Of a stretch of 64,000 nt of DNA, positions 18,865 to 34,057 are shown one piece after another; position 1 is the stretch's first letter, and each line of letters starts with the position of its first letter. The stretch comes from Candidatus Shapirobacteria bacterium (GTDB lineage: Bacteria; Patescibacteriota; Microgenomatia; UBA12405): positions 8,521-72,520 of the forward strand of contig DPKG01000014.1 of the NCBI GenBank assembly GCA_003542615.1. Direction: 5' to 3'. The position numbers and the translations under genes are program-made. Below the pieces are notes generated by a model. That model worked only from the letters and a program-made list of their open reading frames with translations, was not told the DNA's origin and ran no database searches.

Positions 18865-21657
18865 TTAGGGTAAATTCCGTTCAATAAAATCCTGACTGAT
18901 CCAGCCTTCAACATTGATTCTGGTGAGAATCACTTTGACCCAACGTTTGGTCTCAACTAAAATTTCAGCCGTTTGATCTTGAGTTAGTTTGTGGGTGACA
19001 CTGGAATTAAAGGAAGGTTTGGAATAAAGATAGACAGTGTCGTAACTGGGAACACGGATATTAATTTTTGAAAGAGGGGCACTGGAGCTGGAGGGAGCGG
19101 GAGATTGAATTTCCTGGACCAGGAGGCTGAGTATCCAGCCCTGAGTTGAATCATAAGAAGTCTGTAGCCATTTTTCGCCTAAATCGTTGTATTTTTCGGA
19201 ATAAATAGGAATTTCTATGCCGGAGGGAATGGTGGTAATTAAAACGGAATTGCTGTCGGGTTGACTGCGAAGGTTGATTTTATTACCGTTGGTAGGGGCA
19301 ATAATGACTTTTTTAAGAATAGAAAGGGTGGGAGTCGGAGTTTGGGTGGGGGTAATTTGAGGAGTATTGGTGGGTTCTTGCGGGGGTTTTGTGGGAGATG
19401 GTTCGGTTTTCTGTGAAGGGGTGGGGGTAGCATCTGTAGTGGCAGAAAGGACAGAAGGGAGAATGGCAGATTTTTGGGGTCGGCTTTGAAAAATTTGGTA
19501 AGTAACAGAAGAAGATAAACCAAAAGAAAGCCCTACTATGGCGGCAATAGTAATTCCTCGATGAATTTTGGGAGAAGCACGGGGTTTGGTGGGAGGGGGA
19601 ATACCATTGTCTTGGGGTTGGCTTGGGGGAGCTTGAGAAGTGGAATAAACGGGAGGAGTAATGAGAGAAGGTGGGGTGGGTTTGGGGGGGGTGAGAGATC
19701 TAATGTAAATTGCCAGGAAAGCAAAGCCGGCCACAAGTACTATAATAATACCCCAAACCGATATGGCCTGAACTCCCCCGATGAAGCCGGAAAGGGTACC
19801 GATGGATCCGGCGGATGAAACTATGGTTTTTAGGCTCTCGAGATTGCGGTTGACTGAATCAAGTTCAATTTTGGTTTCATAATAGCCTATGATTTTGTCT
19901 TCCGGGAGTTTGGCTTGTTTTTGGAGAATTGTTATTTTGTCAAGGGAGGCAAGGATATTTGAGTGGAGGGTGGTACCTTGGGCAAAATATGAGGTATTTT
20001 TGAGGGGAGCAAAAAGTTCATCAGCCTGTTTTTTGAGGGAGTCAATTTTTTCTTGAGGAATAGTCCAAATATCTTCAACTTGAACTTCAAGAATGATGGT
20101 TCCTCCCGGTTTTAGGGTGATATCTGCAGAGGCATAATAGACAGATTTGGTGGCGTCAAATTTTATTTCTAATTCAGGAGATTTTTTAATAATATTTTCC
20201 TGTTTTACTTCTGAGGGGAAATAATAAAGATAAGGAACTGTTTGAGTGGAAGTTTTAGAAGGATTGGTAATTAAACTTTTGAAGATGATACTGCCTTCTT
20301 CAAGCCAGGAGGTGATGATGGGTTTACTGACAACTGTTTCGAGTAGGGTGCGGTTGGTACTAAGGAGTGCCTTCATAGCCAAAACCTGGTTCATAAGTTC
20401 AGAAAGATCGGTATTTTGGGTAATATTGTTGTTGGTAATGTTTTCGACATTGGAAACAGAGTTAATGGCAGCGATATCGGTAGAGAGATCTTTGACCTTG
20501 TCGTAAATATCGGTAGCAGAAAGACTCCCCCATTTTTCAAGTAAATCATTAAGGTCGAGAGTACTATTGTCGATGGCTTCGATGGCTTCTTTGACCTGTT
20601 GGATACGGCCAAAAATTGAAGCAGTGTTTGAGGTGTCGGAGGTAGAACCGATTGAATTTTCAATGGAGTCTACATAAGCCTTGAGAGTGATGATTTCATC
20701 GTAGGCGGTAGTTGATTTGCCATTGAAATTTAACTCGGAACGGAGGGCGGTAGCAGTGGTGTAAGCGCCATTGGCGGCATTGTAGATGGTAGAGGCAGAA
20801 TTGGTGCCCCATTTATCGATAAGACACTGGACCTGACCAAAAACAGAGTCGTCGGTGCAGGTTTGGGTATTGTTGCCTAATTCTGATTCAAGAGAGTCAA
20901 TATAATTTAAAATATCGGTAACACTATAAGTACTCCATTTGGCTAGAATATTGTCGGTGTTGGTCTGAATGGTGGTGACTGAAGTTTGGAGAGAATCGAC
21001 TTTGGAATCGATGGTGACGAGATCATTTTGAACTGAGGTAAGCTGAAGAGAGATATCGGAAAGACTGGTGCCGACGGAATTGACGGTGTCGGTGGTGGCA
21101 AGGGTGGCACCGTTGTCGAGAGTTGGAGAAGAGAGGGTTTTGGAGGTGTGTCCCCAGATATCACTAACCAAAGTACCAAATCCAGAGAGAGAACGATCAG
21201 AATAAGTCCAGATTTCCTGGACAATATTTCCAAAGGAACTGATAGTGCGGTTATCGTAACTCCAAACTGATTCGGCGGTATCTTGGGTAATAGTAAAGCT
21301 TTTGTCCAGACACATATAGCCATCAATGGTAGTACAACAAATTTGGCTACGGTATAAACCAAGTGGTTGACCGGAGGTGCCGATATCGTAGGAATACCAA
21401 CCGTCAGCGGAGGGGGGAAGTGTAGCGGAATTAATAAATACGGTACCATCCGGATAACGAGCGGTAAGAGTACAGTCAGCATCGGCTACGGGAACATATT
21501 CATCGTTGAAAAGAAATTCACCAACGATACAATCAGCAGTATTGGTACATTGCTGATATTCTCCGGGGGCGGCAGATACGGGAAAGGCCGGGACCAAAAA
21601 AAAGATCCCGGCTAAAAGAATTTTTAGCCATTTGCAATATTTTGTTACCGTCTTCAT
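18865..21657 (-). CDS. large surface protein: signal peptide, Cys-rich N-domain, helical region, TM anchor, Pro/Thr-rich linker, two C-terminal SH3b-like domains
   Basis: 930 aa; N-terminal 'LVPAFPVSAAP' signal; TM 'WGIIIVLVAGFAFLAIYI'; 'PTPTPSQKTEPSPTKPPQEPTNTPQITPTQTPTPT' linker; two ~60-aa SH3b-like repeats ending in W-rich motifs. Confidence 0.6.
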   Translation of the reverse strand: MKTVTKYCKWLKILLAGIFFLVPAFPVSAAPGEYQQCTNTADCIVGEFLFNDEYVPVADADCTLTARYPDGTVFINSATLPPSADGWYSYDIGTSGQPLGLYRSQICCTTIDGYMCLDKSFTITQDTAESVWSYDNRTISSFGNIVQEIWTYSDRSLSGFGTLVSDIWGHTSKTLSSPTLDNGATLATTDTVNSVGTSLSDISLQLTSVQNDLVTIDSKVDSLQTSVTTIQTNTDNILAKWSTYSVTDILNYIDSLESELGNNTQTCTDDSVFGQVQCLIDKWGTNSASTIYNAANGAYTTATALRSELNFNGKSTTAYDEIITLKAYVDSIENSIGSTSDTSNTASIFGRIQQVKEAIEAIDNSTLDLNDLLEKWGSLSATDIYDKVKDLSTDIAAINSVSNVENITNNNITQNTDLSELMNQVLAMKALLSTNRTLLETVVSKPIITSWLEEGSIIFKSLITNPSKTSTQTVPYLYYFPSEVKQENIIKKSPELEIKFDATKSVYYASADITLKPGGTIILEVQVEDIWTIPQEKIDSLKKQADELFAPLKNTSYFAQGTTLHSNILASLDKITILQKQAKLPEDKIIGYYETKIELDSVNRNLESLKTIVSSAGSIGTLSGFIGGVQAISVWGIIIVLVAGFAFLAIYIRSLTPPKPTPPSLITPPVYSTSQAPPSQPQDNGIPPPTKPRASPKIHRGITIAAIVGLSFGLSSSVTYQIFQSRPQKSAILPSVLSATTDATPTPSQKTEPSPTKPPQEPTNTPQITPTQTPTPTLSILKKVIIAPTNGNKINLRSQPDSNSVLITTIPSGIEIPIYSEKYNDLGEKWLQTSYDSTQGWILSLLVQEIQSPAPSSSSAPLSKINIRVPSYDTVYLYSKPSFNSSVTHKLTQDQTAEILVETKRWVKVILTRINVEGWISQDFIERNLP

Positions 21658-21754
21658 TACTTTTTAATAGTGATACTACTAACATGATAGCGTAATTTTA
21701 GAGACAGGTGAAATAGCTAAAAATCGTTGTTAATATATCAAAATATAGAAGACG

Positions 21755-21787
21755 CAAAAAAAGGGAATCGATGATTCCCTTTTTTTA
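21755..21787 (-). terminator. bidirectional intrinsic terminator hairpin
   Basis: AAAAAAAGGGAATCGATGATTCCCTTTTTTT: an 8-bp perfect stem with A/T runs on both sides. Lies between tatA copy A and the 930-aa gene. Confidence 0.5.
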
Positions 21788-21810
21788 AATAAATACCTAT
21801 GAAATAAGGT

Positions 21811-21969
21811 TTATTTTTTATTTTCTTCTTTGCCGGAAAAAGCTTTACGGAATTCTTTAATGGCATCACCAATTCCACGACCTAATTCAGGTAATTTTTT
21901 ACCGCCGAAAAGGAAGAGCAAGACGACGGCAATGATTATGAGCTCAGTTGAGCCAATATTTCTAAACAT
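21811..21969 (-). CDS. tatA: TatA/E family protein, copy A (52 aa), not in ORF track
   Basis: Manual translation MFRNIGSTELIIIAVVLLFLFGGKKLPELGRGIGDAIKEFRKAF...: N-terminal TM helix plus the 'FGxKKLPE' TatA signature and an amphipathic helix. Confidence 0.65.
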   Translation of the reverse strand: MFRNIGSTELIIIAVVLLFLFGGKKLPELGRGIGDAIKEFRKAFSGKEENKK

Positions 21970-22011
21970 TGGTGCCTCCTAGTTAATTAATAAAGAGTTT
22001 GATAGTGTTTG

Positions 22012-22146
22012 TTAGCTTTTTAGAGACTTTTTGATCTCTTTGATGGCTTCAGCAATACCCTTTGAAAGTTCCGGCAACTTACTTCCACCGAAAAGGAAGA
22101 GGAGTATAACTCCAGCTAGTATTAATTCGGGTGTTCCTATATTCAT
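22012..22146 (-). CDS. tatA: TatA/E family protein, copy B (44 aa), not in ORF track
   Basis: MNIGTPELILAGVILLFLFGGSKLPELSKGIAEAIKEIKKSLKS. Confidence 0.6.
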   Translation of the reverse strand: MNIGTPELILAGVILLFLFGGSKLPELSKGIAEAIKEIKKSLKS

Positions 22147-22164
22147 AATTGTTGTTTTGCCTCC

Positions 22165-22896
22165 TTAACTTATCTTAATTGAGTTTTTTAGATTTGCAAT
22201 AGGATAAAGACTTTTTTGAGGATTAAAAAGTAAGGTCCCTTCAAACAATAAAGCCAAGGGAACAAAGATTAGAGACATGGATAAAATATCGGTGGGAGGT
22301 AAAAGAATATCAAAAATTAAAAGACCGGCATATACGTATTTACGTTGAGCAGTGAGAATATTTCTGTCAATAACACCGAGACGAAGTAAAATTGTTAAAA
22401 AGATGGGAAGTTCGAAAACAATTGCCATACAGGTACCCATGACTACAACCTGGGTCAAAAAAGCTTCAATGTCCCAAAAATTACCGATATTAAATTTCTG
22501 ACTGGTATTGACGTAGATGTCGATGACAAACTGGAGGATACGAACACCAAAAATAAAACCGGCAATAAAAAGAATTATACTGATAGGTAGAAGTTTGGTA
22601 ATAAGACGAAATTCATGAGGACGAAGAGCGGGTTTGATAAATCCCAGAAGTTCATAAATTAAAAGCGGTCCGGCAAAAATAATGCCGGAAAGAATACTAA
22701 TGCTAATAGCCAGATTGATGAATTGGTAGGGCGAAACCAGGACGATATTAATATTTTCGAGGTTAAAAATAGAAATAAGACTTGTGATTATCCAACGATT
22801 TTTGACAGCACCAAAAATAACACCAATAACAAAGGCAAGAGCGACCTTAAAAACTTTTGACCGGATCTCGTTTAGATAATGGTCGAATTGGGGCAC
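22165..22896 (-). CDS. tatC: Sec-independent protein translocase TatC
   Basis: 243 aa, 6 TM; N-terminal 'HYLNEIRSKV' (TatC LxEHLxELR region), 'FELPIF', 'LLPPTDILSMS' (TatC LLTPPD motif). GTG start. Confidence 0.7.
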   Translation of the reverse strand: MPQFDHYLNEIRSKVFKVALAFVIGVIFGAVKNRWIITSLISIFNLENINIVLVSPYQFINLAISISILSGIIFAGPLLIYELLGFIKPALRPHEFRLITKLLPISIILFIAGFIFGVRILQFVIDIYVNTSQKFNIGNFWDIEAFLTQVVVMGTCMAIVFELPIFLTILLRLGVIDRNILTAQRKYVYAGLLIFDILLPPTDILSMSLIFVPLALLFEGTLLFNPQKSLYPIANLKNSIKIS

Positions 22897-22898
22897 AT

Positions 22899-23054
22899 TT
22901 ATTTCTTGTTACCCTGATCTTCGAAGCCTTTACGAAATTCTTTGACTGCGTCACCAATTCCACGGCTTAATTCGGGTAATTTTTTACCGCCGAAAAGAAG
23001 GAGCAGGATAAGACCTAATATGATTAATTCTGTGGTTCCGATGTTGCTGAACAT
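22899..23054 (-). CDS. tatA: TatA/E family protein, copy C (51 aa), not in ORF track
   Basis: MFSNIGTTELIILGLILLLLFGGKKLPELSRGIGDAVKEFRKGF... Confidence 0.65.
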   Translation of the reverse strand: MFSNIGTTELIILGLILLLLFGGKKLPELSRGIGDAVKEFRKGFEDQGNKK

Positions 23055-23070
23055 AAATTTGAATTAAATT

Positions 23071-23205
23071 TTAATTTTTGAGAGCTTTTTTAAATTCTTT
23101 TATGGATTGAACAATGCCACGGGTAAGTTCAGGAAGTTTTCGGTCGCCGAAAAGGATGAGTAAGATTATACCTAATAAAATTAATTCGTTGGTACCGATT
23201 CTCAT
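23071..23205 (-). CDS. tatA: TatA/E family protein, copy D (44 aa), not in ORF track
   Basis: MRIGTNELILLGIILLILFGDRKLPELTRGIVQSIKEFKKALKN; ATGA overlap with copy E. Confidence 0.6.
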   Translation of the reverse strand: MRIGTNELILLGIILLILFGDRKLPELTRGIVQSIKEFKKALKN

Positions 23206-23384
23206 GATTCGTCCTCTTTGTTGATGTCTTTTTTAACGTCTTTAAGTTCTTTATTGATGTTTTTGAGTTCTTTTCCGGCTTGACCGGCACCTTTGGCTAA
23301 TTCACTGACTTTTTTACCACCAAAAAGAAGAAGTAAAATAAGGAGAAAAATAAGAATTTCGGTAAGGCCAATATTATTGAACAT
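23202..23384 (-). CDS. tatA: TatA/E family protein, copy E (60 aa)
   Basis: The track ORF 23202-23420 is trimmed to the internal Met 'MFNNIGLTEILIFLLILLLLFGGKKVSELAKGAG', which gives the TatA signature. Confidence 0.6.
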   Translation of the reverse strand: MFNNIGLTEILIFLLILLLLFGGKKVSELAKGAGQAGKELKNINKELKDVKKDINKEDES

Positions 23385-23428
23385 ATAAGGAATCTTAAAT
23401 ATAAAACGACAAAAGTTCAAGTAGCAAA

Positions 23429-23938
23429 TTATTTGAGGGAAGCCAGGGTGGCTTTGGATTTGGTGTCTTTGAGAGTTTTACCGGTGCTTCCAGGAATAGT
23501 ATGTGAACTGACGAGCTCATCCCAGACTGCGTCGGCAATGGCATTGATATCTTCGACAGTGACAGTTGAAGTTGCGGCTACCAAACCAGCAGAATTTGAT
23601 GATCTGACTGAAACTTGGTTGACGTTGGTACGGTCACTGACGTTACTGTTGGCGTTGACAAGATTAACGGCATACTGACCATCTTCAAAGGTAATAGTAT
23701 AGGGTGGTAATATCTCGATAACTCGGGCAAAAGTAAGACTTCCTAGGGTGACTTCAGTGTTGTGGTTGTGGGTCTTTAACAAGTAGATTCCATACACGGC
23801 GGCTTCGTAGGCTTTTAAGGCTAATCTAAACCAATTAAGGTCCAGTTCTCTGATTTCCGTGGGAATACTTTGAATTAAAGTCATGTCTTCCCTAGGGATG
23901 AGAATGACAAAGGTAAGGGGGTCTATAGAAATGGCCAT
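23429..23938 (-). CDS. hypothetical protein (169 aa), last gene of the virion-like operon
   Basis: No signal peptide; Ser/Thr/Val-rich C-terminal half. No family recognised. Confidence 0.4.
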   Translation of the reverse strand: MAISIDPLTFVILIPREDMTLIQSIPTEIRELDLNWFRLALKAYEAAVYGIYLLKTHNHNTEVTLGSLTFARVIEILPPYTITFEDGQYAVNLVNANSNVSDRTNVNQVSVRSSNSAGLVAATSTVTVEDINAIADAVWDELVSSHTIPGSTGKTLKDTKSKATLASLK

Positions 23939-24162
23939 TAGCTACCTCCAGCATAGACTCGAGTTTGGATAGCAACTAACTGTTTATTGATGTTTTCAAA
24001 CTTAGAGTCGTACTGTCTGATAATACCATCCAAATCTTTGACTTGCTTTTGTAATTTCTTGACTAATTCTTCGGTTAATTGGTTGTAGACAATAATTGCC
24101 TTGATATTGTTGATGGTGTTTTTTTCAAAAATCTCTCGTAGTTGTTGTTCGCCGGCATCCAT
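23938..24162 (-). CDS. hypothetical coiled-coil protein (74 aa)
   Basis: Heptad-rich, Lys/Gln/Glu-rich; start/stop overlap with the 23429 gene. Confidence 0.35.
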   Translation of the reverse strand: MDAGEQQLREIFEKNTINNIKAIIVYNQLTEELVKKLQKQVKDLDGIIRQYDSKFENINKQLVAIQTRVYAGGS

Positions 24163-24220
24163 ATTTGTATTCTAATGATACGACAAGTGACTGATATGTT
24201 CAATGATCGGAGAATTATTC

Positions 24221-24514
24221 TTACTTCTTAAAAAAACTTTTCTTGGTTTTTGGGGTTTCAGATTCATCGCTTTCATCAACGGCTGATTCGTTATCTTTGG
24301 TTGGATTTTCCATATATTTTTCAATTTCTTTGCGGATTTGATAAGGATCATATCCCGATGTCAGGTACAAATGATATCTATTTTCAAAAAATATAACAAC
24401 ATTTTTCTGAAGTGATTTTTCTTGAGCTTCCTCTTTGATTTTGAGTGCTTCACTGCGGGATTTGACCTTAGTGAATACTATGTGTTTATTTAAATCTTCA
24501 AATGTTTGTGGCAT
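24221..24514 (-). CDS. hypothetical protein (97 aa), acidic C-tail
   Basis: No family recognised. Confidence 0.35.
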   Translation of the reverse strand: MPQTFEDLNKHIVFTKVKSRSEALKIKEEAQEKSLQKNVVIFFENRYHLYLTSGYDPYQIRKEIEKYMENPTKDNESAVDESDESETPKTKKSFFKK

Positions 24515-24534
24515 AAATACTTTTAATTAATATT

Positions 24535-26304
24535 TTAGGTATCACTTGTACGGATGGCGGTAGCGGTGTTGTTGGAGTTAGTTTGTGACCAGGGAGCGAT
24601 ATATTGTTTGATGGGGGTATTGTTAACTTCACCTCCATCTCTAACTATAATAACTAAGCTTAAAGCAGTAACATCGCTATGAACACTAGTAAAAGAGAGG
24701 GAGCCCGGCGCACCGGCCAGGTCATCTATATAGGAAATATAAACACCATTGCTGATACTGGCATTAACTGTTAAAAAATCTGCTACATTAGGGACGTCAG
24801 CTTCGGAAGCTGCTGGGTCAATAGTAAATGTTTTACTAGTCGTATTAACAGCAGTATATATTAGTCGTCTTTCAAAGCCATCATTGTCGATAACCCTAAT
24901 AGTTCCACTTGCCGGAGTATAGTCGGGGACAGCATTGACTACGACTGAAGTAATATTGTCAGCAGCTAAAGCAGTAGAAAGTGTCATTTGGGTCTTGTTG
25001 ATGGCCGGATCGTTATTGCTATCGACACCAAAACGAGGGGCAACTAATACCCGATCTTCGCCATCTACCAGGCCAGCCAAGGTGTTGGTAACATAGTTTG
25101 GCGGAGATTTTGGAGCATCACCTTCCAAATCGGAAAGAGAATCGCTTGATGATAAATCGGTTGGTTCAATACCTAATCCATAAGCACCGATGATAGCTGA
25201 ACCGGTAGAAGCACCACAGAAAGGTTTAGAAACGGTACGCTCAAGGTAAGACGTTACCGAGGCCACTCCGGTGGCACCAGTGATAGAACCGTTGGGGGCA
25301 GCTCCAGTTAGAAGCTGAATATATAAATGGGTGGCTGATGTAGTGCTATTGGCGGCGAAAAGCTGACCAGTGCCAAGGGTAGCGCCAGCACCCCAAGTTA
25401 ATAACTCAGGTTCGACAAAAGTTCCAGTTGATTGGACGACTGTTATGTCGTGGGTGATGCCACGGAATAATTCACCGCTGATACCATATAAAGTAGTTGC
25501 AGATGAACCATCACGGGAAAGATATTTAGTGTATTCATAGAAATCGTTGATGGTAGTATGGGTACCGGAAATGTTCCAATCGGAATAATAATGTTCATCC
25601 TCAAGATTGTTGTCTATGTCCAATGCAGCGTAACCTTCGGTATTAGTGTAGTCAGTACTCCAACCGGAGACCGTGCCGGAATCCGTTTGGTTGTTAAGGT
25701 CGGTGGAATCAGTCAAAGCCAAAACGTTGTTACCCCGGGCGGTAGCATTGATGGTAAACTCCGAGTAAGTATAGCCGAAACGGCGGCAGGTACCGATAAG
25801 TTTTCTGCCATCAATGGGGTTTCCGCCGGATACGGTTTTGATCATAAAACGGTGAGAGATACCGGAGGTGGCGTCGGCATTTAGACCAGCATTGTTATAA
25901 TTCCAGAAACTTAAGGCACTGCTTATAACAGCGCCATTTTGGATGATTCTGATTTGGACGTCAGCATTACCGAAGTTAACGATACCGTCGTAGATGTCGT
26001 CACCATCATTTTGGATGATAGAACCATCGTATAGATGTTCGGCGGCGGTGGCATCGATATTGTAATTATTTATTAGGGTAATAATGTTATCGGTGGACCT
26101 GGCAGAAGGATTAAGACTGGTAATATCGAGTTCGTCGTCTCCAGCAGCAACAGCATCGTCGGCTAACCCCTGGAGCCAACGGTGAAATTCAATGACAGTA
26201 GCATAAGACGGAGTACCACCGGTGCCGTCGTGATCGCCACCGACATATCTAATATCGTTGGCTACTCCACGGGTAATTGTCCAGTCAGTTGCAACTAGTG
26301 CCAT
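24535..26304 (-). CDS. phage virion-like fibre/receptor-binding-like protein, paralog 1 (589 aa)
   Basis: No signal peptide; Gly/Thr/Ser/Asn-rich; shares 'LTDSTDLNNQTD' and 'INDFYEYTKY' blocks with the 27118 gene. Local GC is clearly above the window average. Confidence 0.5.
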   Translation of the reverse strand: MALVATDWTITRGVANDIRYVGGDHDGTGGTPSYATVIEFHRWLQGLADDAVAAGDDELDITSLNPSARSTDNIITLINNYNIDATAAEHLYDGSIIQNDGDDIYDGIVNFGNADVQIRIIQNGAVISSALSFWNYNNAGLNADATSGISHRFMIKTVSGGNPIDGRKLIGTCRRFGYTYSEFTINATARGNNVLALTDSTDLNNQTDSGTVSGWSTDYTNTEGYAALDIDNNLEDEHYYSDWNISGTHTTINDFYEYTKYLSRDGSSATTLYGISGELFRGITHDITVVQSTGTFVEPELLTWGAGATLGTGQLFAANSTTSATHLYIQLLTGAAPNGSITGATGVASVTSYLERTVSKPFCGASTGSAIIGAYGLGIEPTDLSSSDSLSDLEGDAPKSPPNYVTNTLAGLVDGEDRVLVAPRFGVDSNNDPAINKTQMTLSTALAADNITSVVVNAVPDYTPASGTIRVIDNDGFERRLIYTAVNTTSKTFTIDPAASEADVPNVADFLTVNASISNGVYISYIDDLAGAPGSLSFTSVHSDVTALSLVIIVRDGGEVNNTPIKQYIAPWSQTNSNNTATAIRTSDT

Positions 26305-26403
26305 ATTATTTTAAAAATTATTTTAGAGGTAAATTTATAAATTAGTTAATGAAGTTATATTGTTTATAGCTTTTTAAAATTTGGATGTCAATGACAGGTT
26401 ACC

Positions 26404-26916
26404 CTAAGCCTTTTTGAAGCGGTCGGAAATGTAGAAATTGGTAATATTGTCGCTTTTTCCATCAATAAAATCGTTTAGAGTTTTTTGTCCTAAAGCTATA
26501 ATTTCTTGAAGATTGCTGTTGGTATTGTTGGTAGAAATATAGTTTAAAAATTCACTAAAGGTGACATCGGGAACAGCGGCCATTAAGCTGATAAAACTAT
26601 TAAAAACAGAATCCTTGGAGGCTTCAAATTTGACAAAATCTTGATTGACCAAATCACCGACCTTGGTATCTTTGTCTAAAGTTTTTAAAATATCCATTAA
26701 AACCAAAGATTTAACCAATAAAAAGTTTAGATTCATTAAAATATTACAAGTGGCTAATTGTTTTTTGGTGTAAAGTTTTGGTTTATTGTCAGTATCGGTC
26801 CAATAACTTAGTTTTTGAGGAGAATTGTTACTCCCCTTTTTAAGCATGGTATTGGGAGGTCTTACCCAGTTTCGATTCTTTTGGAGAATTTTTGATTTTT
26901 TGGAAGGATTAATCAT
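26404..26916 (-). CDS. hypothetical protein (170 aa)
   Basis: Basic N-terminus; no family recognised. 4-nt overlap with the upstream gene suggests coupling. Confidence 0.4.
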   Translation of the reverse strand: MINPSKKSKILQKNRNWVRPPNTMLKKGSNNSPQKLSYWTDTDNKPKLYTKKQLATCNILMNLNFLLVKSLVLMDILKTLDKDTKVGDLVNQDFVKFEASKDSVFNSFISLMAAVPDVTFSEFLNYISTNNTNSNLQEIIALGQKTLNDFIDGKSDNITNFYISDRFKKA

Positions 26917-27125
26917 CTTTGGGAGCCTTTGGAATAAATTAAGGCTAACATTTCAAGCATTTGTTTTTGTAATTTGGCAAATTTGTGTTGATAATTATTA
27001 ATTATATCCTGTTTGTTTAGAATATCTTTCTCCAGATGTCGAAGAAGTTTTCGGATTCGTTTGGCTTTTAAAACAGCTTCTTGGAGTTTTTGGGAGGAGG
27101 AATTTTCAAATTCTTCTCTATTCAT
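26913..27125 (-). CDS. hypothetical small helical protein (70 aa)
   Basis: Coiled-coil-like; overlaps both neighbours. Confidence 0.35.
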   Translation of the reverse strand: MNREEFENSSSQKLQEAVLKAKRIRKLLRHLEKDILNKQDIINNYQHKFAKLQKQMLEMLALIYSKGSQR

Positions 27126-29046
27126 CTTTGGCTAATTGAATAATGACTGATAGACCGGTACTGGTATTGACAGTACCACTGATAGCTCCCTGTTGATAGT
27201 AAGGAGTACCGGATGATTTCCGGACCCAACCGGCGACCGGTTGGTTGGCGGTAAGACTTCGGGTATCGCTAATTTCCCCAATGGAGTTAGTGGCACCGTT
27301 GATAATGGCAAAGGTAGCGGTAATACTAGTACCGGTAGCCGGTGATAAATCGAGAGTTTCAGTGGCAGTATAGGTATATTGATTTTCGTTGGTGACAGTA
27401 ACTTCAAAGGCGCCGTTGTAATCGTCGTCATTGGTAACACCTTTAATAATGACGTAATCTCCACTAGTTAGTCCGTGGGCAGTGTGACTGACGGTGGCGG
27501 TGGTACCGGAACCGGTAATAGAGACAGGAGCTTGGTAAAAATAGTTAGCGTTATCGGTAACCCAAACCAGGACGTTGGCAAATTCGATGACCGAAGCAGT
27601 AGCTAAATCCTGAACGGTAATAGTGGTGGCAACGGTACTGGGCGGAGTTTGGATGGTATCAGTAGAATCGGTGAGCTGATAATTGTTGGAGTCGGCACCG
27701 GCCATGTTGTAAACATAAACGCCACGAGCCCCATAAAATTTACCTCCGGCAAAAGTACCGAAAGGAGCGATTTTTACTTCAATTAATGTTTCCGGAGTGC
27801 CGTTAACGAGAGCGGCACCAGTAGAAGAATCGGTGATGGCTTGATTGTCGGTAAAAGTTCCCCTGACGGTATGGAGAGTCAAAATACCAGTGTTGTCACC
27901 ATTGTAATGGTCGGCGGTGATGATAGCAGTACCGGTAGCGGTAGAAACAGCCAGACCTTGGGTGAAAGCAGCGGTGCGGGTGTCATAAGAGAGACGAAGA
28001 GTACCGACTCCGGTATACTGTTCGCCGTTTAAACCATTTAGAGAAGTGGTAGAGGTGCGACGGGTGACGTATTTGGTGTATTCGTAAAAATTTTTGATGG
28101 TATTGCCGCCACAGTTTATAACTACATCGTAAGGTTGCAGGCCATTGCCATTACTTAGATCTTTGGTGTCGGCGCCAAAGGTAAAAGTGATACCAGAAAG
28201 AGCGGCAATGGTACTGATGTCGGTGGTGTTATTTAAGTCGGTACTGGTAGCCAGAGGGATAGGAGAGCGACCACCGGTGGTCATGATAGTTTGATAATGA
28301 TCGTATAATTTACCGTATTCTCGGGCAAAGATAGTGATTACACCGCTATCATTAAGGGTGCCCTGAATGACAATTCTTTGTAAAATGTCAATGTGACCTG
28401 AAGGCCACCAGGCGGTGATTTTGGTACCAGCTTGGATAATATAAATTTCGGTACCTGAGGCAAGAGTACCGATGGTATAGATATTAGCCCAGGTGGTACC
28501 CCCGGTGGCGGCGGCTAATATTTGGGTATCGATGTGAAAATTACAGGTGACATCGCCGGAAGTAGAATCCCAATTGTCGGTAGCGGCATTGCTGGCAGGA
28601 CGAATGACAAGATACTCACCACTGACAAAGAGAAGGGTACCGGAATCACCATCGGCGTGAGTAATAGTGTTGCCAATATCTCCGGAGACGATATTGGTGC
28701 CGGAACGTTTGATGACAACTATACCGGTACGAACAGTGGCAACGCGGGGATAATCTTTGCTAATTAATCCCCCACCATACAAATGTTGAGTAGTAGTTCC
28801 GTCTATATACCAAGGGTCCTGCTGGTCGTCCAAATCGATAAGGCCAATTTGATATTCCGTGGGGGTAATGGCATTAATAGGAATACCGTCATCCATTTGG
28901 GTGGGTTCATCAAACAGGTCTTGAAGAGCAATGTAAAGTTCTCTGACAGAATAAGTACCGGTAGTACCAGACCAGACAATTCTTTTTTGACGGGTTTCTG
29001 ATAGATAGTAAACGGTAAAATCTCCCGATAGAACAGTGCTTGACAT
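27118..29046 (-). CDS. phage virion-like fibre/receptor-binding-like protein, paralog 2 (642 aa)
   Basis: Same motif blocks as the 24535 gene ('LATSTDLNNTTD', 'IKNFYEYTKY') plus similar N-termini. No signal peptide; G/T/S-rich. Confidence 0.5.
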   Translation of the reverse strand: MSSTVLSGDFTVYYLSETRQKRIVWSGTTGTYSVRELYIALQDLFDEPTQMDDGIPINAITPTEYQIGLIDLDDQQDPWYIDGTTTQHLYGGGLISKDYPRVATVRTGIVVIKRSGTNIVSGDIGNTITHADGDSGTLLFVSGEYLVIRPASNAATDNWDSTSGDVTCNFHIDTQILAAATGGTTWANIYTIGTLASGTEIYIIQAGTKITAWWPSGHIDILQRIVIQGTLNDSGVITIFAREYGKLYDHYQTIMTTGGRSPIPLATSTDLNNTTDISTIAALSGITFTFGADTKDLSNGNGLQPYDVVINCGGNTIKNFYEYTKYVTRRTSTTSLNGLNGEQYTGVGTLRLSYDTRTAAFTQGLAVSTATGTAIITADHYNGDNTGILTLHTVRGTFTDNQAITDSSTGAALVNGTPETLIEVKIAPFGTFAGGKFYGARGVYVYNMAGADSNNYQLTDSTDTIQTPPSTVATTITVQDLATASVIEFANVLVWVTDNANYFYQAPVSITGSGTTATVSHTAHGLTSGDYVIIKGVTNDDDYNGAFEVTVTNENQYTYTATETLDLSPATGTSITATFAIINGATNSIGEISDTRSLTANQPVAGWVRKSSGTPYYQQGAISGTVNTSTGLSVIIQLAKDE

Positions 29047-29073
29047 TTTCTTATTTTACAATTTTTGAATTGA

Positions 29074-30678
29074 CTATGTAGAGGCAGTGATATCTTCGAT
29101 TAGAGTAATGGTGGCTGAATAGCCAGTACCAGTAATAGTACCCGATGAGCTGACGGGAATATATTTGGTGTCCCCAGTTGAAGATTTTCTAACACGAACG
29201 TAAATGGCGGCGGGAGTGGTGCCGCCATAACCAAAAGAAACTTCACCATTAATATCCGTATCGGTATTTAATAACACGGAATCATCACTGGAAAGACAGA
29301 CAGCGACTTGGGCTGTTTGTATGGGATCGTTGGTGACATCAACAACGGTGACAGAAACGGGGACAGAAGAAACAACACTGGTGGTGGAACCAGCACTGTT
29401 TTGGACGGATATGGTACCGGTAATACCGGAAGCATTGAGAGTAACCGCTCCGCCGGAATTATTATAAATTACTTCATTTCCGGTAGTACCATCGGTAGTG
29501 GCATAGCCGGTAAAAGTATGACCAGAAAGACTATAAGAATTACCGGCACAAGAGGTATCAAGTTCGATGGCATGACTGGTACCATCGGAGACAAAAGTGC
29601 AGGCGGTAATAACTGAGGGATTAGTAGCTAAAATTGATGAGGCAGCAGTGGTATTGGTAAAAGTACAGTCGGTGAAAGTTCCACCACCCTGGGTAACTAG
29701 AGCACATCTTCTAAAAGTGGCGGAAATGACGGTGCTATTTGATTGAAAGATAAAAGTGTTCATGTCGGTAAAGGAGCTGTTGTTGATATTGACATCGGCA
29801 TTAGCAACAACTTCAAAATCACCTTTAGATAATTGGGTGGACAAAAGGGCGGTAAAGTTGACGTTGTCCCAGGTGACGACCGAACTGGTATTTTTTATTT
29901 CAATCTTATTAAAGGTGGCAAAGGTAGCGGGGGTGTCGTCTATGGTAATGTTGATATTTGAGTCGACAAAGTAACAGGCTGCTGTCTCCCCAAAACTCAT
30001 GAGACCTTTCCAGAGATAACCGGTACCTTCTTTTTGAAATAGACCCCATCTGGCTGTTTGCGCATCGTTGACGGCAGCCATGGCAGCAAAATTGCCGTAA
30101 CCACCGCCGATGTTATCTCCGTTGTCGAAAAGTATCTGGCCACGGCCATAATACATAGCATCAAAACCATGCATGGTTCCCTTGGAAATATTAGAAATAA
30201 CATCAGCGGCGGCACCAAAAAAACGATAGGTACCACCATGGCCGGTACCGACAGTATAATCGGCAGTTTTGGCAGGATTAACAGCATAACATTGCCAGCC
30301 ACCATAGGGATTGCGACCTTTATCACTACCACCAACTCTCCATGCGGAGAAGTTTAAAACATCGGCACCAACGATGGCTCTTAAACCTCCGGAAGCGTAG
30401 TTGCTCATAGCGTTAGCTGGTAAAAGAACGTGCCACATAAAAACGCAGGTGTAGTTAGCAGTAAATGAAGCAGATAAAGAAGAGCCATAATCAAAACAAC
30501 CGGAACAGAGTCCGGTTTTATTATTGGTGTCGGATGAACGACAACCTGAACCTTCAATGTAATAATCACCTTCTCCCAGTGGAGCATCTCCAACAGCCCA
30601 AGCCGTCATTTCCACCCAGGTGCCGCTTTCAGCATTAGTGAGAGGGGTTAGATCAGAATTATATGTGGGTACGGCCAT
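29074..30678 (-). CDS. right-handed beta-helix (pectate-lyase-fold) tailspike-like protein with C-terminal beta-sandwich domain (534 aa)
   Basis: Repeats of the type 'TFRRCALVTQGGGTFTDCTFTNTTAASSILATNPSVITACTFVSDGTSHAIEL'. C-terminal 'VTVVDV...GEVSF' carboxypeptidase-regulatory-like region. No signal peptide. Confidence 0.5.
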   Translation of the reverse strand: MAVPTYNSDLTPLTNAESGTWVEMTAWAVGDAPLGEGDYYIEGSGCRSSDTNNKTGLCSGCFDYGSSLSASFTANYTCVFMWHVLLPANAMSNYASGGLRAIVGADVLNFSAWRVGGSDKGRNPYGGWQCYAVNPAKTADYTVGTGHGGTYRFFGAAADVISNISKGTMHGFDAMYYGRGQILFDNGDNIGGGYGNFAAMAAVNDAQTARWGLFQKEGTGYLWKGLMSFGETAACYFVDSNINITIDDTPATFATFNKIEIKNTSSVVTWDNVNFTALLSTQLSKGDFEVVANADVNINNSSFTDMNTFIFQSNSTVISATFRRCALVTQGGGTFTDCTFTNTTAASSILATNPSVITACTFVSDGTSHAIELDTSCAGNSYSLSGHTFTGYATTDGTTGNEVIYNNSGGAVTLNASGITGTISVQNSAGSTTSVVSSVPVSVTVVDVTNDPIQTAQVAVCLSSDDSVLLNTDTDINGEVSFGYGGTTPAAIYVRVRKSSTGDTKYIPVSSSGTITGTGYSATITLIEDITAST

Positions 30679-31117
30679 ATTTTTCGATTAAAAAGTTATT
30701 AAACTCATTTTTAACATCTTGGGCATTATCTCCTTTTTTGAGATAAATTTTGTTAATTCCATTAGTATTGATAATCACTGAATAACCTTGATTCCCAAAA
30801 TTTTTAATCTGTTGTTTGGCAATTTCGGTCATCTCGAAACGGTGGTCTTGGGTGCCAAAAAAAATATTATCATTAACTTTTTCAAATATCATTTTACAGT
30901 GATCTGGCCTTAATTTGATAGAGACTTTTTCCATTTGATGATAGGCACAACGAAATCCGGCACAGGCTTTTGGGCGATCTTTGTAGATTAGACAGCCTTT
31001 TTTAAGAACACAATGTTTACAAAGTTGATTGGCTGGTTTATTAAGACTGCGTACAGGTAATAGATAGCAACACAGGGTACATTGGCCACAGCGATTTTGG
31101 TTTTCAATATTTGCCAT
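30659..31117 (-). CDS. YkgJ/UPF0153-like Cys-rich (putative Zn/Fe-chelating) protein; first gene of the operon
   Basis: 'CGQCTLCC' (CxxCxxCC) plus further Cys pairs 'CKHC', 'CAGFRC'. Confidence 0.45.
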   Translation of the reverse strand: MANIENQNRCGQCTLCCYLLPVRSLNKPANQLCKHCVLKKGCLIYKDRPKACAGFRCAYHQMEKVSIKLRPDHCKMIFEKVNDNIFFGTQDHRFEMTEIAKQQIKNFGNQGYSVIINTNGINKIYLKKGDNAQDVKNEFNNFLIEKYGRTHI

Positions 31118-31241
31118 AAGCTATTATACATTTGAGCTAAACTTTTTTTAATCTATGCTTAACTTAATTAAAAGTTTTGATCATGATAGTTATAAAAGGG
31201 AGAAATTATTTTTAGTTTCGGTGGAGGAAACAGCAGGTCGT

Positions 31242-31709
31242 TTAATCGACTGATGGTTCATCAGTTTTTGGCTGGGAATTGAGGATGTAATTTTTCTTGT
31301 CGGAAAAAGGGTGAATTATACCCGTTATCAAGTAGTAGATTAGAGGAATAAGGAGAAGGGTACTGGCAAAAGCGATAGAAATAGTCCACTGGACGGTGGT
31401 GATTTTCATGCCGGTGGCTAGTTGTTGGATGGCATAAAGATTGCTGAGGATAAAAATAACAAAGAGGGAAATGGCTTTTTGAAAATTAAAGCCACTAATA
31501 AAGGATAATACGAGCCAAACTAGGAGAAAAAGTCCGATGGTTCTGGAAAAAATACCAAAGGTAGTCAGAGGATATTGAGACATCAGAGGAGAATTCAAAA
31601 ATTGGTAAGGATTTTTGACGGTGAGGGCAATTGGTCCGGATATTGAGTCGATGGCGTGGGCTAAGACGATAAGGGCAAAGGTAAAGATAAAGAGATATTC
31701 TTTTTTCAC
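31242..31709 (-). CDS. hypothetical polytopic membrane protein (155 aa)
   Basis: 4 predicted TM; 4-nt overlap with the upstream gene. Confidence 0.4.
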   Translation of the reverse strand: MKKEYLFIFTFALIVLAHAIDSISGPIALTVKNPYQFLNSPLMSQYPLTTFGIFSRTIGLFLLVWLVLSFISGFNFQKAISLFVIFILSNLYAIQQLATGMKITTVQWTISIAFASTLLLIPLIYYLITGIIHPFSDKKNYILNSQPKTDEPSVD

Positions 31710-32692
31710 CTTTTTTGTAAAAAACGATTATAAATAAATAGACTTAAAGCTATACTAGAGAAATAAGTGAATATAAGTAGGATAACATTTCGCAACACGA
31801 AAGGGGAAATAAATATCAAGGCGTCATCAATCGGAGTTGTAATGGCCAATATCCATTTGGTAGAAGAATTAAGTTTGACAGGTGATGAAGCGATTAAAGT
31901 TCTGGTAAGCTTACCTGTAGAGAAATCGGGGATGACAATATCAAGCTTGGATTCTTGATTAGAGGTCAGTTTTTGACGTATTAGTGGCATAACAATTTTG
32001 TCACCAAGAAAAGGATGTTCGTCGACGATATGAAAAATGTTTTGGTTTACTACTTCTTGTGTAGTACCATTGAAGACATCTCCGTTGGAATTAAATAGAT
32101 AAATACCGGTACGTGGGGAGATTTTTAGAGGTTCAAGATATTTTTCAGTCAAGGAAGGGATAGAAATAGAAACCGTGAGAACCCCAATGAATTTATTGTT
32201 GGAATAAAGGGGAGTGGCGACGGGAATTTTAAAAGTTTGGCCGGCACCAGGTACCCGGGAGACAAATGGCTTGCCAAAAGAAATTGTACCAGGAGGTGAA
32301 CCTGAAGCTGCGATAAAATAATCACGATCTGAGACATTGCCTCCAAGAGAAAGTTTTTCGGCATTACTGGCGGTTAATTTTATTTGACCTTGGATATCGG
32401 TGAGAATGATACCGACAACGGGAGTGTCGGACCAATTATCGACAAAGTCTTGGAGAATTTTAGGAGTGATAATATTATTGCTGGAAAGAATAAGTAAGGA
32501 CCTGGAGGTTAAGTCAATAAAACTACTGATAGAAGATGCTCCAGAACGAACAATAACCTGTTCGCGATGGAGCATTTGCTCAACCAAAGATTTGATACTA
32601 CTGGCTCCGGTAATCTGATATAAGGTAAACGAAAGAGCAAAAAAAATAACAAAAGAAATTGTTGAAATCAGATAAAAAAATTTTTTAGTCAT
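31706..32692 (-). CDS. membrane protein with large extracytoplasmic sensor-like (Cache-like?) domain and no output domain
   Basis: N-terminal TM, ~250 aa periplasmic domain, C-terminal TM, ends immediately. Domain assignment tentative. Confidence 0.35.
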   Translation of the reverse strand: MTKKFFYLISTISFVIFFALSFTLYQITGASSIKSLVEQMLHREQVIVRSGASSISSFIDLTSRSLLILSSNNIITPKILQDFVDNWSDTPVVGIILTDIQGQIKLTASNAEKLSLGGNVSDRDYFIAASGSPPGTISFGKPFVSRVPGAGQTFKIPVATPLYSNNKFIGVLTVSISIPSLTEKYLEPLKISPRTGIYLFNSNGDVFNGTTQEVVNQNIFHIVDEHPFLGDKIVMPLIRQKLTSNQESKLDIVIPDFSTGKLTRTLIASSPVKLNSSTKWILAITTPIDDALIFISPFVLRNVILLIFTYFSSIALSLFIYNRFLQKR

Positions 32693-32744
32693 AATTGCTT
32701 ATGATATAACACGGTATTGCTTTTTGTAATGTCAAAAGATGATA

Positions 32745-33605
32745 TCAAAAAATTGTATCAAACGATTCGTAAGTTTGATTTTCTTTGTCGTTCCAGGCGG
32801 TGGTGAAATCAGACACACCATTACAATAAAGGAAGTCTCCTTCTCCTACCCCACTGGTAGTTTCCCGTTGGATGTACCACTGGCCACTTTGGTCGACAAA
32901 ACCATAATAAGAATAGGTGTCGCTGCTGGTGTCATCCATCTTGCTAATCTTGTAACCATCGGTGGGCTGTTTGGCGGCGGGGTCGATTTTGTTGCCACCG
33001 GTATCTTTAATTGAAATGGTGCCGGGGCCGGGGACAGAACCGAAAAAGGAAGCAGAGGCTTTTTTGGGATTGACCAAAGTGAGGGCGGCAAGACCAAGAC
33101 CGGCAGAACCGGCCATTTTGAGAAATTGGCGGCGGCTTTGGTCGGAGATCTGAACCTGAGTTAAATCTTTTTCGGGTGGCGGAGGGGTGGGTTTGGGGGG
33201 AAGGCGAAAATTAAGATGAGAAATTAAATTTTTGATTTGATTGACCAATTCGAGTCCAAAAAAGAAAACTAAGGGAGTAAAAGTAAGACCAAGAATAAGT
33301 TGAAGAGTAGATTGAGCCACCAAAAGATTCATTAGCCAGATAACGGCGACCAAAAGATAACAAAATAAATTTAATATGGAAAAAATAAATCGGGAGATTT
33401 TGCCGGAAATAAATTTTTTGAAAATCAGATAGATTAATACCAAAGTAAAGGCGATCAGAGCAAGGGGATTATTTTTCCAAACGCCAAAAACAAAACCGAG
33501 AACAAGATTTAAAAAGACAAAAAGGAGAGAGTACCAAAAAAGAATGTGATTAAGAGTTATTTTGATTTTCATGGAAATTCCTTTAGAAATTGGGACTGGA
33601 CCCAA
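32745..33605 (-). CDS. membrane protein with internal twin-arginine signal-like segment
   Basis: ~130-aa N-terminal 4-TM domain, 'PPKPTPPPP' linker, then 'SRRQFLKMAGSAGLGLAALTLVNPKKASA' (consensus Tat motif, h-region, AxA) followed by a ~110-aa Gly/Thr-rich domain. Confidence 0.45.
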   Translation of the reverse strand: MGPVPISKGISMKIKITLNHILFWYSLLFVFLNLVLGFVFGVWKNNPLALIAFTLVLIYLIFKKFISGKISRFIFSILNLFCYLLVAVIWLMNLLVAQSTLQLILGLTFTPLVFFFGLELVNQIKNLISHLNFRLPPKPTPPPPEKDLTQVQISDQSRRQFLKMAGSAGLGLAALTLVNPKKASASFFGSVPGPGTISIKDTGGNKIDPAAKQPTDGYKISKMDDTSSDTYSYYGFVDQSGQWYIQRETTSGVGEGDFLYCNGVSDFTTAWNDKENQTYESFDTIF

Positions 33606-34057
33606 CCAAGTTGGTTGCCGTCCAGATCAAGTTGATACCAACCGTCCTGTTTTAGGCGATAAAAATAAATAGTATCGTAAAAAATATTATTGATGATTTT
33701 ACTTGAAGCCAGAGGTTTTTCGTAGACATCAATTTTTTGCCATTGAGGTGAATTAATTTTAACCATGCCACCAAGAAGAGAGGAACTAAGGGTCGGAGTG
33801 GGAGAACCGTTGGAATTGGCGGAAGTATTTGGGTTATTTAGACTGGAAGCCATGTCTTTTCGAAGGTTAATCAGTTCCCGAAGAATAATTTCAGTTTGGG
33901 AATTAGCATTTAGAGGAGTGGGGGTAATAAGTTCTGACGGAGGAGGTGTTATGTTGGTGGAAGGAGGAAGTGGTTGATTGTGGTCGATGAGAAACTTGTC
34001 GGTAAGAATGGTGGTTAAAACCACAAGGGCGATGGTTTGGAGTTTGGAAAGTTCCAT
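33569..34057 (-). CDS. secreted/anchored protein with Pro/Thr linker and C-terminal SH3b-like domain
   Basis: N-terminal hydrophobic segment, 'PPSTNITPPPSELITPTP', and a C-terminal ~60 aa domain similar to the C-terminal repeats of the 930-aa protein. Confidence 0.4.
   Translation of the reverse strand: MELSKLQTIALVVLTTILTDKFLIDHNQPLPPSTNITPPPSELITPTPLNANSQTEIILRELINLRKDMASSLNNPNTSANSNGSPTPTLSSSLLGGMVKINSPQWQKIDVYEKPLASSKIINNIFYDTIYFYRLKQDGWYQLDLDGNQLGWVQSQFLKEFP

Follow-up and report, generated by a model that had tools for sequence, protein, structure and literature searches.

Phage structural genes that a cell keeps under purifying selection, with no replicating virus, are known from the R- and F-type tailocins, the type VI secretion system (T6SS), the extracellular contractile injection systems and phage-like protein translocation structures (eCIS/PLTS) and the gene transfer agents (GTAs). 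On the phage side, fibre and receptor-binding proteins usually join a conserved N-terminal domain to C-termini that vary, and tailspikes and depolymerases with the pectin-lyase fold (CBA120 TSP1-4, HK620 and those of Acinetobacter and Klebsiella phages) are among the closest known systems to the locus studied here, whose protein g2 has that fold. This locus lies in a 64,000-nucleotide stretch (the window) of contig DPKG01000014.1 of a Candidatus Shapirobacteria bacterium, a Microgenomates member of the Patescibacteria or candidate phyla radiation (CPR). These bacteria are thought to live attached to other cells, and to our knowledge the means of partner recognition and binding are unknown for most lineages outside Saccharibacteria. 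The locus comprises nine genes, numbered g1–g9 in their order of transcription on the minus strand (31117→23429), followed on the same strand by genes of the Tat (twin-arginine translocation) system, a general exporter of folded proteins. No description of it was found in searches of the literature on CPR and Tat, Patescibacteria tail fibres, tailspikes or CPR phages. We consider it very probable that these genes are a viral fibre module maintained by the host, and we lean, with much less assurance, towards the combined statement that this module is chromosomal, vertically inherited and Tat-exported.

To place the module, its relatives were collected from IMG/VR (184 for g3 and 314 contigs for g9), and the gene context was read in 80 g3-centred and 80 g9-centred viral loci. 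A g2 homolog stands directly upstream of the g3 homolog in 61 of the g3-centred loci. The g9-centred loci show the order g3/g6-like, (g1), g2, (g8), g9 over ~5 kb, with homologs of g2 in 56, g3 in 68, g6 in 63, g1 in 8 and g8 in 2 of the 80; the g6-like gene precedes g1/g2 in 63. Homologs of g1 lie directly upstream of g2 homologs in 3/80 g3-centred and 8/80 g9-centred loci, and the two viral loci L170 and L171 have a g8 tblastn match directly before the g9 homolog. Some carriers can be named by type: L085 comes from a myovirus, its terminase, sheath, tube, portal and collagen-like fibre genes being followed by the g2 and g3 homologs, and in the T4-like L170 the module is surrounded by genes for UvsX, a gp41-type helicase, an exonuclease and a primase. 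The guanine-plus-cytosine (GC) content of the module-bearing viral contigs ranges from 0.26 to 0.69, and g9 is up to 71% identical to the viral copies. As this gene set recurs as an unbroken block in hundreds of IMG/VR contigs, T4-like myoviruses included, it is a genuine viral fibre module. A tblastn search with g9 against 50,697 deposited phage records gave no match; set beside the 314 contigs in IMG/VR, this means that the module seems confined to uncultured viruses.

On the virus-like contigs L139 and L007, g1-g2-g3 lie beside a collagen-like fibre gene, with sugar-modifying genes further upstream. In L007 (456-7668) these code for a glycosyltransferase, a PIG-L deacetylase, a hexapeptide transferase and a radical SAM protein, and in L139 (16-6495) for an aminotransferase and a sulfotransferase, a hint at glycosylation of the viral fibres.

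Outside Patescibacteria, every recognisable homolog is viral. The nearest neighbour of the cellular g3 homologs is cellular or genomic in 35 of 36 cases, that of the viral homologs is viral in 69 of 82, and cellular and viral copies fall largely into separate similarity groups. The genes tatA and tatC and the cellular neighbours were absent from all viral loci checked (0/160).

The module is built around three large proteins, g2, g3 and g6, that gave no significant match in Pfam or PHROG scans and none among PDB sequences. Structure predictions were made for monomers. That of g2 has an N-terminal β-sandwich, a right-handed parallel β-helix like that of pectin-lyase-fold phage tailspikes and depolymerases, and a C-terminal transthyretin/Ig-like domain, so that the β-helix that an earlier note on this DNA, made from the sequence alone, had seen in one of the large proteins is borne out. 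By fold, g2 is a tailspike/depolymerase-like protein, with trimerisation and glycan cleavage putative. For g3, a fold was predicted at a local confidence score (pLDDT) of 86.5, with structural neighbours only for the C-terminal transthyretin/CnaB-like domain; a Foldseek search of g3 against BFVD was uninformative, with assorted virion proteins at template modelling (TM) scores ≤0.17. The N-terminal body of the g3 family is homologous to gp53 of cyanophage Syn5 (tblastn 1e-6, pairwise BLASTP 2.7e-12, hhalign probability 97.5% and E 7e-12), annotated in GenBank as 'structural protein'. With g3 and g6 being paralogous (BLASTP E 5e-12) and g6 aligning along the g3 family, both are, by sequence, assigned to the gp53 family. 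The C-terminal domain of g2 resembles that of Syn5 gp54 (probability 86%). Raytcheva et al. 2014 reportedly identified gp53 and gp54 as the 'horn' proteins of Syn5. A correspondence of g4-g9 to Syn5 gp55-gp58, for which some lengths agree (169 and 70 aa), was rejected for want of similarity.

The last gene, g9, had 974 homologs, and a profile search with its N-terminal domain (residues 1-~124, with an invariant T56-H57-x-H59) gave 2,878 cluster representatives. Among the 150 matches listed, the domain starts at or within ~20 residues of the N-terminus of proteins of 151-1,502 aa. Since a conserved N-terminal domain is thus followed by variable C-termini, we read it as an anchor domain of the kind that begins fibre or receptor-binding proteins. 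In T4 fibres, metal ions lying on the axis are held by HxH motifs. Neither PDB nor Pfam nor PHROG gave a match for g9, and searches of PDB sequences with g2, g3 and with the g3 and g9 profiles were likewise empty.

The remaining proteins are small. The Cys-rich g1 carries CGQCTLCC (CxxCxxCC); it has no Pfam family at E≤1, matches phrog_9155 (unknown function) at 7e-7 and, by tblastn, hypothetical proteins of Rhizobium phage RHph_Y1_11 (4e-12) and Synechococcus phage S-SRM01. The coiled-coil proteins g4 and g8 are paralogous (BLASTP E 8e-9), and g4 is kept in L001, L164, L165 and L249. There was no Pfam or PHROG match for g5, and g7 had only phrog_1523 at 3.8e-4.

The cellular copies have been kept by selection. 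Close relatives, among them scaffolds of 836 kb and 865 kb, carry the whole g2-g9 block, followed by three tatA genes, tatC and two further tatA genes, between cellular flanks. The nearest, L164, is 94% identical in nucleotides over window positions 20391-29190 (8.8 kb); g3-g9 are 92-100% identical to it, with ratios of nonsynonymous to synonymous substitution rates (dN/dS) of 0.05-0.18 where computable, and g8 is identical at every site. Against L165 and L001, in which TatC is 71-72% identical, the values are 78-81% for g3, 86-88% for g9, 65-66% for g6 and 65-66% for the SH3-domain neighbour, at dN/dS 0.03-0.3; in L001 g9 is 88% identical and TatC 71%. The module thus diverges no faster than the host genes that flank it. 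The small genes are under constraint as well, g5 at 60-94% identity (dN/dS 0.12-0.14), g7 kept at dN/dS 0.17-0.20 and g8 at 66-100% identity with a dN/dS of 0.03 versus L165.

The upstream end of the block behaves differently. Only 37% identity to L164 remains in g2, and the homology to L164 ends at ~29190, ~116 nt short of the 3′ terminus of g2, with no likeness left beyond that point. Where the left flank here has g1, up155, a dCache gene and up286, L164 carries unrelated genes for a sensor kinase, a response regulator and a redoxin, a sharp recombination boundary. Moreover, g1 is absent from the close relatives L001, L164 and L165 and otherwise accompanies viral g2 genes. These data fit an old capture and vertical inheritance under purifying selection, with cassette exchange at g2 (together with g1).

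The earlier note had also pointed to an operon of nine co-directional, overlapping genes with raised GC content. Nine ORFs were indeed found, all in one direction, but the range given for them, 24221-31117, covers seven (the end is at 23429), and only four junctions overlap (g1/g2 by 20 nt, g3/g4 by 8 nt, g4/g5 by 4 nt and g8/g9 by 1 nt), the others being gaps of 20-99 nt. The GC content is raised as described, at 0.45-0.46 in g2, g3 and g6 versus 0.377±0.037 in the other ORFs, with ordinary values (0.32-0.34) in g1 and g5. The implication of foreign DNA, however, found no support. The excess sits at codon position 2 (0.48-0.52 versus 0.33±0.04) because the large proteins are rich in G/T/S/N/A residues (47-51% versus 28% elsewhere), whereas their GC content at codon position 3 (GC3) is host-like (0.385-0.428 versus 0.363±0.058 for the rest, within one standard deviation). 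The composition is therefore that of the amino-acid content and not of foreign DNA. That these three proteins lack signal peptides was upheld, as no hydrophobic h-region can be read at their N-termini.

Capsid, portal, terminase, sheath and tube genes, of which the earlier note had seen none anywhere in the window, were absent among 30 Pfam-scanned window ORFs (some small ORFs lie outside the scan) and, judging from precomputed Pfam hits, within ±10 kb of the module in L001, L002, L164 and L165. No integrase domain appeared in Pfam scans of the module and window ORFs, and no att-like repeats flank the module, the repeat families ≥30 nt at 17-36 kb being tatA paralogs only and shorter matches imperfect; the tRNAs lie at 8-15.5 kb, >8 kb from the module. 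No PHROG or Pfam match to sheath, tube, tape measure or baseplate proteins was found in the module or its flanks, nor any in the core of 43 linked loci described below. An Anaerolineales locus, L040, was tried as a prophage context and rejected, as it holds an isolated gene with no hallmark genes.

Accordingly, two of the origins that the earlier note had offered, a prophage remnant and a tailocin-like fragment, were discarded, the latter because sheath, tube and baseplate genes are lacking here and in relatives. Its third, a host-encoded fibre system built from virion-like parts, is supported by the contiguous viral module and the largely separate similarity groups. The note had further held that membership of a conserved cellular family, such as S-layer proteins or adhesins whose signal is cleaved off, would speak against virion-like parts; no signal peptide and no such Pfam family was found, and similarity to surface proteins (SlaB, pilins) is limited to the generic C-terminal transthyretin/CnaB-like domain.

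The conserved same-strand linkage to tat is the most unusual feature of the locus. The earlier note was right that the operon ends directly upstream of the tat cluster (the first tatA begins ~47 nt after g9) but treated tat as a boundary only. A scan of one genome per GTDB species gave 76 module loci, 51 of them informative, with enough downstream sequence. In 39 of the 51, tatC is on the same strand ≤12 kb downstream, at a median of 6.1 kb from the g3 start. These genomes belong mostly to named Microgenomates lineages. The carriers that GTDB names span at least nine candidate lineages (Gottesman-, Shapiro-, Roizman-, Beckwith-, Woese-, Levy-, Collier- and Daviesbacteria and WWE3); further ones are labelled 'Microgenomates group' or 'Patescibacteria group', and several loci Saccharibacteria. 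Module matches in bins outside Patescibacteria were without tat. In the reverse direction, a search from TatC in metagenomes found the module upstream in 14 of the 19 loci with at least 6 kb of upstream sequence, and the TatC loci without it have a single tatA and no SH3 neighbour. Clustering of the ORFs of 43 linked loci gave a core of large g2/g3/g6-type proteins (43/43, reaching 3,702 aa), the terminal protein (42/43), tatA (42/43, ~2.4 copies per locus) and tatC.

Some loci deserve a comment of their own. Third-party annotation (TPA)-assembled metagenome-assembled genomes (MAGs) labelled Gammaproteobacteria/Pseudomonadales show Patescibacteria-type synteny (L010, L013, L015, L021, L026, L031, L047, L048, L052, L053 and others); their labels are doubtful because the synteny is the same (module, tat and SH3 protein), and these MAGs are probably mislabelled. 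Loci from Archaeoglobales and Desulfarculales MAGs equal IMG/VR loci in locus length, match position and E-value (L059/L153, L061/L155 and L062/L156), L061 and L155 both lying on 24,094-bp contigs. Giant fused g2/g3-type ORFs occur upstream of the tail-bearing protein in L017 (3,689 aa), L019 (2,813 aa), L009 (2,993 aa) and L014 (2,924 aa), two of these loci being named Shapirobacteria and two labelled Saccharibacteria. In L002-L006 (Woesebacteria-type and Beckwithbacteria), the module contains or adjoins AAA_14/DUF4143 ATPase genes, and AbiEii genes are located within it in L004-L006 and ~5 kb past tatC in L002 and L003, so that the locus may be a hot spot for defence-gene insertion; L004 and L006 miss the g3-type gene but still have tatA.

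Within the tat cluster of the window (Pfam TatA_B_E match at 3.6e-11), five tatA paralogs (59, 44, 51, 44 and 52 aa, with 60-84% DNA identity among them) flank one tatC. This five-tatA layout is repeated in L001, L164 and L165, an unusually high TatA copy number for a ~0.7-0.9 Mb genome. No terminator-like site was found between g9 and tatA. The hairpin after the last tatA has the longest stem (15 pairs) among the terminator-like sites in 18000-34500 and is the only strong one, possibly the end of a long transcription unit from g1/g2 to tatA5. The coordinates of these features are collected in Table 1.

Table 1 Features of the fibre module, the tat cluster and their surroundings (positions in the window).
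Feature	Position	Strand	Length (aa)	Description
g1	30659-31117	minus	152	Cys-rich, CxxCxxCC (YkgJ-like) motif; accessory gene outside the conserved cellular core
g2	29074-30678	minus	534	Tailspike/depolymerase-like; swappable cassette
g3	27118-29046	minus	642	Syn5 gp53-like N-terminal body and transthyretin/CnaB-like C-terminal domain
g4	26913-27125	minus	70	Predicted coiled coil, g8 paralog
g5	26404-26916	minus	170	GC typical of host
g6	24535-26304	minus	589	g3 paralog, second gp53-like protein
g7	24221-24514	minus	97	Small, acidic
g8	23938-24162	minus	74	Coiled coil, directly before g9 as in viral copies
g9	23429-23938	minus	169	N-terminal fibre-anchor domain and C-terminal tail; most conserved gene of the module
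g9 C-terminal tail	23432-23539	minus		Residues 134-169, ADAVWDELVSSHTIPGSTGKTLKDTKSKATLASLK
tatA1	23202-23381	minus		Small ORF, TatA paralog
tatA2	23071-23205	minus		Small ORF, TatA paralog
tatA3	22899-23054	minus		Small ORF, TatA paralog
tatC	22165-22896	minus		Pfam TatC 3.1e-38
tatA4	22012-22146	minus		Small ORF, TatA paralog
tatA5	21811-21969	minus		Small ORF, TatA paralog
Terminator-like hairpin	21755-21787	minus		15-bp stem, intergenic, after tatA5
SH3-domain envelope protein	18865-21657	minus	930	Directly after tat; Pfam SH3_3 1.5e-16
up286	32745-33572	minus		Polytopic membrane protein, internal consensus Tat signal

A second conserved feature joins the module to the tat genes. By tblastn and ORF extension, the last protein of the module was found to end in the same C-terminal tail in ~45 loci, irrespective of the domain before it. 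Its consensus, …IADAVWDE(V/L)I..H…G..G..LKDAK.KATLASLK-stop, is nearly always present on the terminal protein, with 51-94% identity where the match is limited to the tail. In its usual form the terminal protein has ~432 aa and a β-helix (matched by Pfam Beta_helix in L002); here it is the shorter g9. Where a tatA match was found, tatA starts 12-70 nt past the stop of the tail protein in 13 loci and up to 1.8 kb off in others. The tail is of a viral type in a distinct cellular form.

We also searched all ORFs in the 43 loci for twin-arginine signals, with a pattern (S/T-R-R-x-F-L-K plus an h-region) and hydrophobicity scan. The twin-arginine (RR) motif was found only in the up286 family and in the first transmembrane segment (TM1) of TatC itself. 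The sequence 'ENRQKRI' at the N-terminus of the g3 family was considered as a cellular export signal and rejected, being equally present in viral copies. The internal signal of up286 (SRRQFLK, SRRQFLKMAGSAGLGLAALTL...ASA|SFFG) makes this protein the sole candidate canonical Tat substrate in the neighbourhood, and by a strict pattern the motif is kept in 13 of 23 homologs. The protein has several N-terminal hydrophobic segments, a proline-rich linker, an internal (D/S/N)RRxFLK with h-region and AxA, a mature start FFGS and a small C-terminal domain, a build that resembles the combined Sec/Tat insertion of actinobacterial Rieske proteins. Homologs of up286 occur in L001, L004, L011, L013, L015, L019, L020, L028, L041, L046 and L073.

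The 930-aa protein directly after tat combines a Sec-type signal with an extracellular region, hydrophobic segments and, at the C-terminus, a pair of SH3 domains, and it was found in 39 of 83 loci. A (V/I)WxYxxR(T/S)L motif is present in 1-3 copies in 44 of its 54 homologs. This motif resembles the AVWDE…/…VWSYTQ motifs of the fibre tails and may be a shared fibre repeat or a docking element; as a speculation, though a plausible one, the protein could be a surface anchor for the fibres.

The other window ORFs examined are cellular: ClpB, SHMT, a RecD-like helicase, an M3 peptidase, YibE/F, a dCache sensor, SH3-domain proteins and a type III restriction-modification pair at 57436-62723 on the minus strand (a ResIII helicase/endonuclease of 901 aa and an N6_N4_Mtase/TypeIII_RM_meth protein of 625 aa). 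Plus-strand GC skew is strongly positive (0.2-0.55) from ~7 to ~55 kb regardless of gene orientation and negative at ~55-62 kb, and the change near 55 kb may reflect a strand switch connected with replication; a Microgenomates genome has been reported to show a disparity in strand composition.

Taken together, these data suggest how the locus might work. The module proteins would fold and oligomerise in the cytoplasm in the manner of phage fibres, and the folded fibres would be exported by the Tat translocase, whose genes seem to share a transcription unit with the module, either by hitch-hiking or via the C-terminal tail of the last protein. A Tat route is proposed because oligomeric β-helix fibres are not expected to cross Sec unfolded and then reassemble. 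Once at the cell surface, where the SH3-domain envelope protein encoded next door might hold them, the fibres could bind or degrade glycans of partner cells, with g2 exchanged like a specificity cassette. Taken singly, Tat-dependent export of the module proteins is a tentative proposal that we hold to be somewhat less probable than its opposite. The most detailed version, in which the Microgenomates Tat system exports pre-folded, signal-less phage-type fibres through tail recognition or hitch-hiking and these dock on the VWxYxxRTL repeats of the SH3 protein as a virus-derived attachment and depolymerase organelle for partner recognition with an exchangeable g2, is more doubtful again.

Several observations weigh against this proposal. 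Every module protein lacks a twin-arginine signal and any other signal peptide, so that export by Tat would be non-canonical, and the nearby candidate substrate up286 would explain the tat genes without any link to the module. The tail may be a trimerisation or docking element and not an export signal, some viral g9 homologs having a related ending (…AVWD..H..GSFG…KKLLTVAKFLGLK). About a quarter of the related TatC loci are without the module and some module loci without tat, so that the two are not bound to occur together and their linkage could be synteny passed on by descent. Many of the Tat-linked GTDB loci also carry uninformative or wrong taxon labels. The g3 body has no fold match among solved structures, which leaves the fibre label to its Syn5 gp53 homology and gene context, and export, surface location and oligomeric state are putative.

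The same lack of export signals would suit a host-maintained module that acts inside the cell against phages, by poisoning of assembly, receptor masking or decoys, with its position beside tat being inherited synteny. The AbiEii and AAA_14/DUF4143 genes in or beside the module of the Beckwithbacteria and Woesebacteria-type loci point the same way; the rapid turnover of g2 also fits an arms race with phages, and the closeness of the g9 anchor domain to viral copies is what a dominant-negative subunit needs. Yet such interference leaves unexplained why strand and close spacing to tatA (12-70 nt in 13 loci) are kept across many lineages while the left flank varies even between strains, why the tail has its cellular-type KATLASLK end and why the neighbouring envelope protein carries fibre-like repeats. 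A decoy should track current phages, whereas cellular and viral copies fall into separate similarity groups, and fusions of 2,800-3,700 aa would be odd for one. We consider this reading improbable. Surface or released fibres that leave the cell without the help of Tat export (through the lysis of some cells, an unknown transporter or membrane permeabilisation by the several TatA paralogs with no recognition by TatC), with a shared envelope neighbourhood accounting for the linkage, are improbable to a like degree. The absence of RR signals in the module, the presence of a separate canonical Tat candidate, the five tatA paralogs and an envelope-gene-rich neighbourhood (SH3-domain proteins, the up155 membrane protein and the dCache sensor) agree with such a route, but the conserved core holds neither a lysis cassette nor alternative secretion genes, the spacing to tatA is tight and operon-like, and there is no terminator-like site between g9 and tatA, the one strong site following the last tatA.

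Two further explanations invoke a virus or particle more directly. Fibres might be supplied in trans to a particle encoded elsewhere (GTA-like or satellite-like) or to an infecting helper phage. Docking on a viral baseplate is possible with a g9 anchor domain so close to the viral copies, and the inspection of relatives covered ±10 kb around the module; however, no particle genes were found in scans of the 64-kb window, genomes of ~0.7-1 Mb leave little room for a hidden particle and the Tat linkage is left unexplained, all of which makes this explanation very unlikely. A remnant of a prophage or tailocin, now decaying at a favoured integration site beside tat, would account for the exclusively viral homologs outside Patescibacteria, for the GC content above that of the flanks and for the recent replacement of g1 and g2. 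It is hardly reconcilable with host-like GC3, nine intact ORFs at dN/dS 0.03-0.3, a g9 better conserved than TatC (88% versus 71%), the same core in 39 of 51 species-level genomes and the absence from our scans of integrase, att repeats and capsid, portal, terminase, sheath or tube genes. Sequence identities, dN/dS, nearest neighbours and the lack of att repeats thus rule out a decaying prophage for practical purposes, and we regard this as the least credible of the explanations.

The preferred reading, a chromosomal and vertically inherited viral fibre module, has consequences beyond this genome. For partner binding in these bacteria, a conserved and selected virus-derived fibre/depolymerase module whose specificity gene can be swapped offers a concrete candidate, and its linkage to tat raises the question of whether Tat can move large fibrous oligomers without signal peptides. 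The analysis also defines three large uncharacterised viral protein families without a Pfam, PHROG or PDB match and a common fibre module in uncultured T4-like viruses, and loci of this kind account for the viral appearance that pieces of CPR genomes can have to prediction tools.

The locus would work in the manner of a set of phage receptor-binding proteins. Compared with phage tailspikes, whose genes lie among virion genes, as the viral g2 homolog does in L085 (by the portal and collagen-like fibre genes), the copy described here has no such surroundings. In Syn5, the gp53 and gp54 genes are adjacent and both annotated as structural. However, the order is reversed (gp53 then gp54), Syn5 is without homologs of g1, g8 and g9, no atomic structure of gp53 is known for comparison, and Syn5 belongs to the podoviruses, the most complete viral copies of the module being those of T4-like myoviruses. 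Signal-less subunits exported with a signal-bearing partner, the Tat hitch-hikers, are known from the large subunits of E. coli hydrogenases and from DmsB. The module proteins resemble them in being signal-less, presumably folded in the cytoplasm and encoded with tat, with the Tat-signal protein up286 ~9 kb upstream. They differ in that the module core contains no signal-bearing partner and that the cargo would consist of large fibrous oligomers whose chains reach 3,700 aa in relatives, well beyond any Tat cargo known. Finally, where tailocins, T6SS, eCIS and GTAs keep either a tube with a sheath or tape measure and with a baseplate, or a capsid, and are linked to lysis or a membrane complex, the present module keeps the fibre layer only and is linked to Tat. 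Domesticated phage structural genes are known as such, and the Tat-export reading is the novel part; if that reading is true, the locus would add a class to the cargo of Tat and a kind of apparatus to those domesticated from phages, made of fibres only, with neither tube nor capsid.

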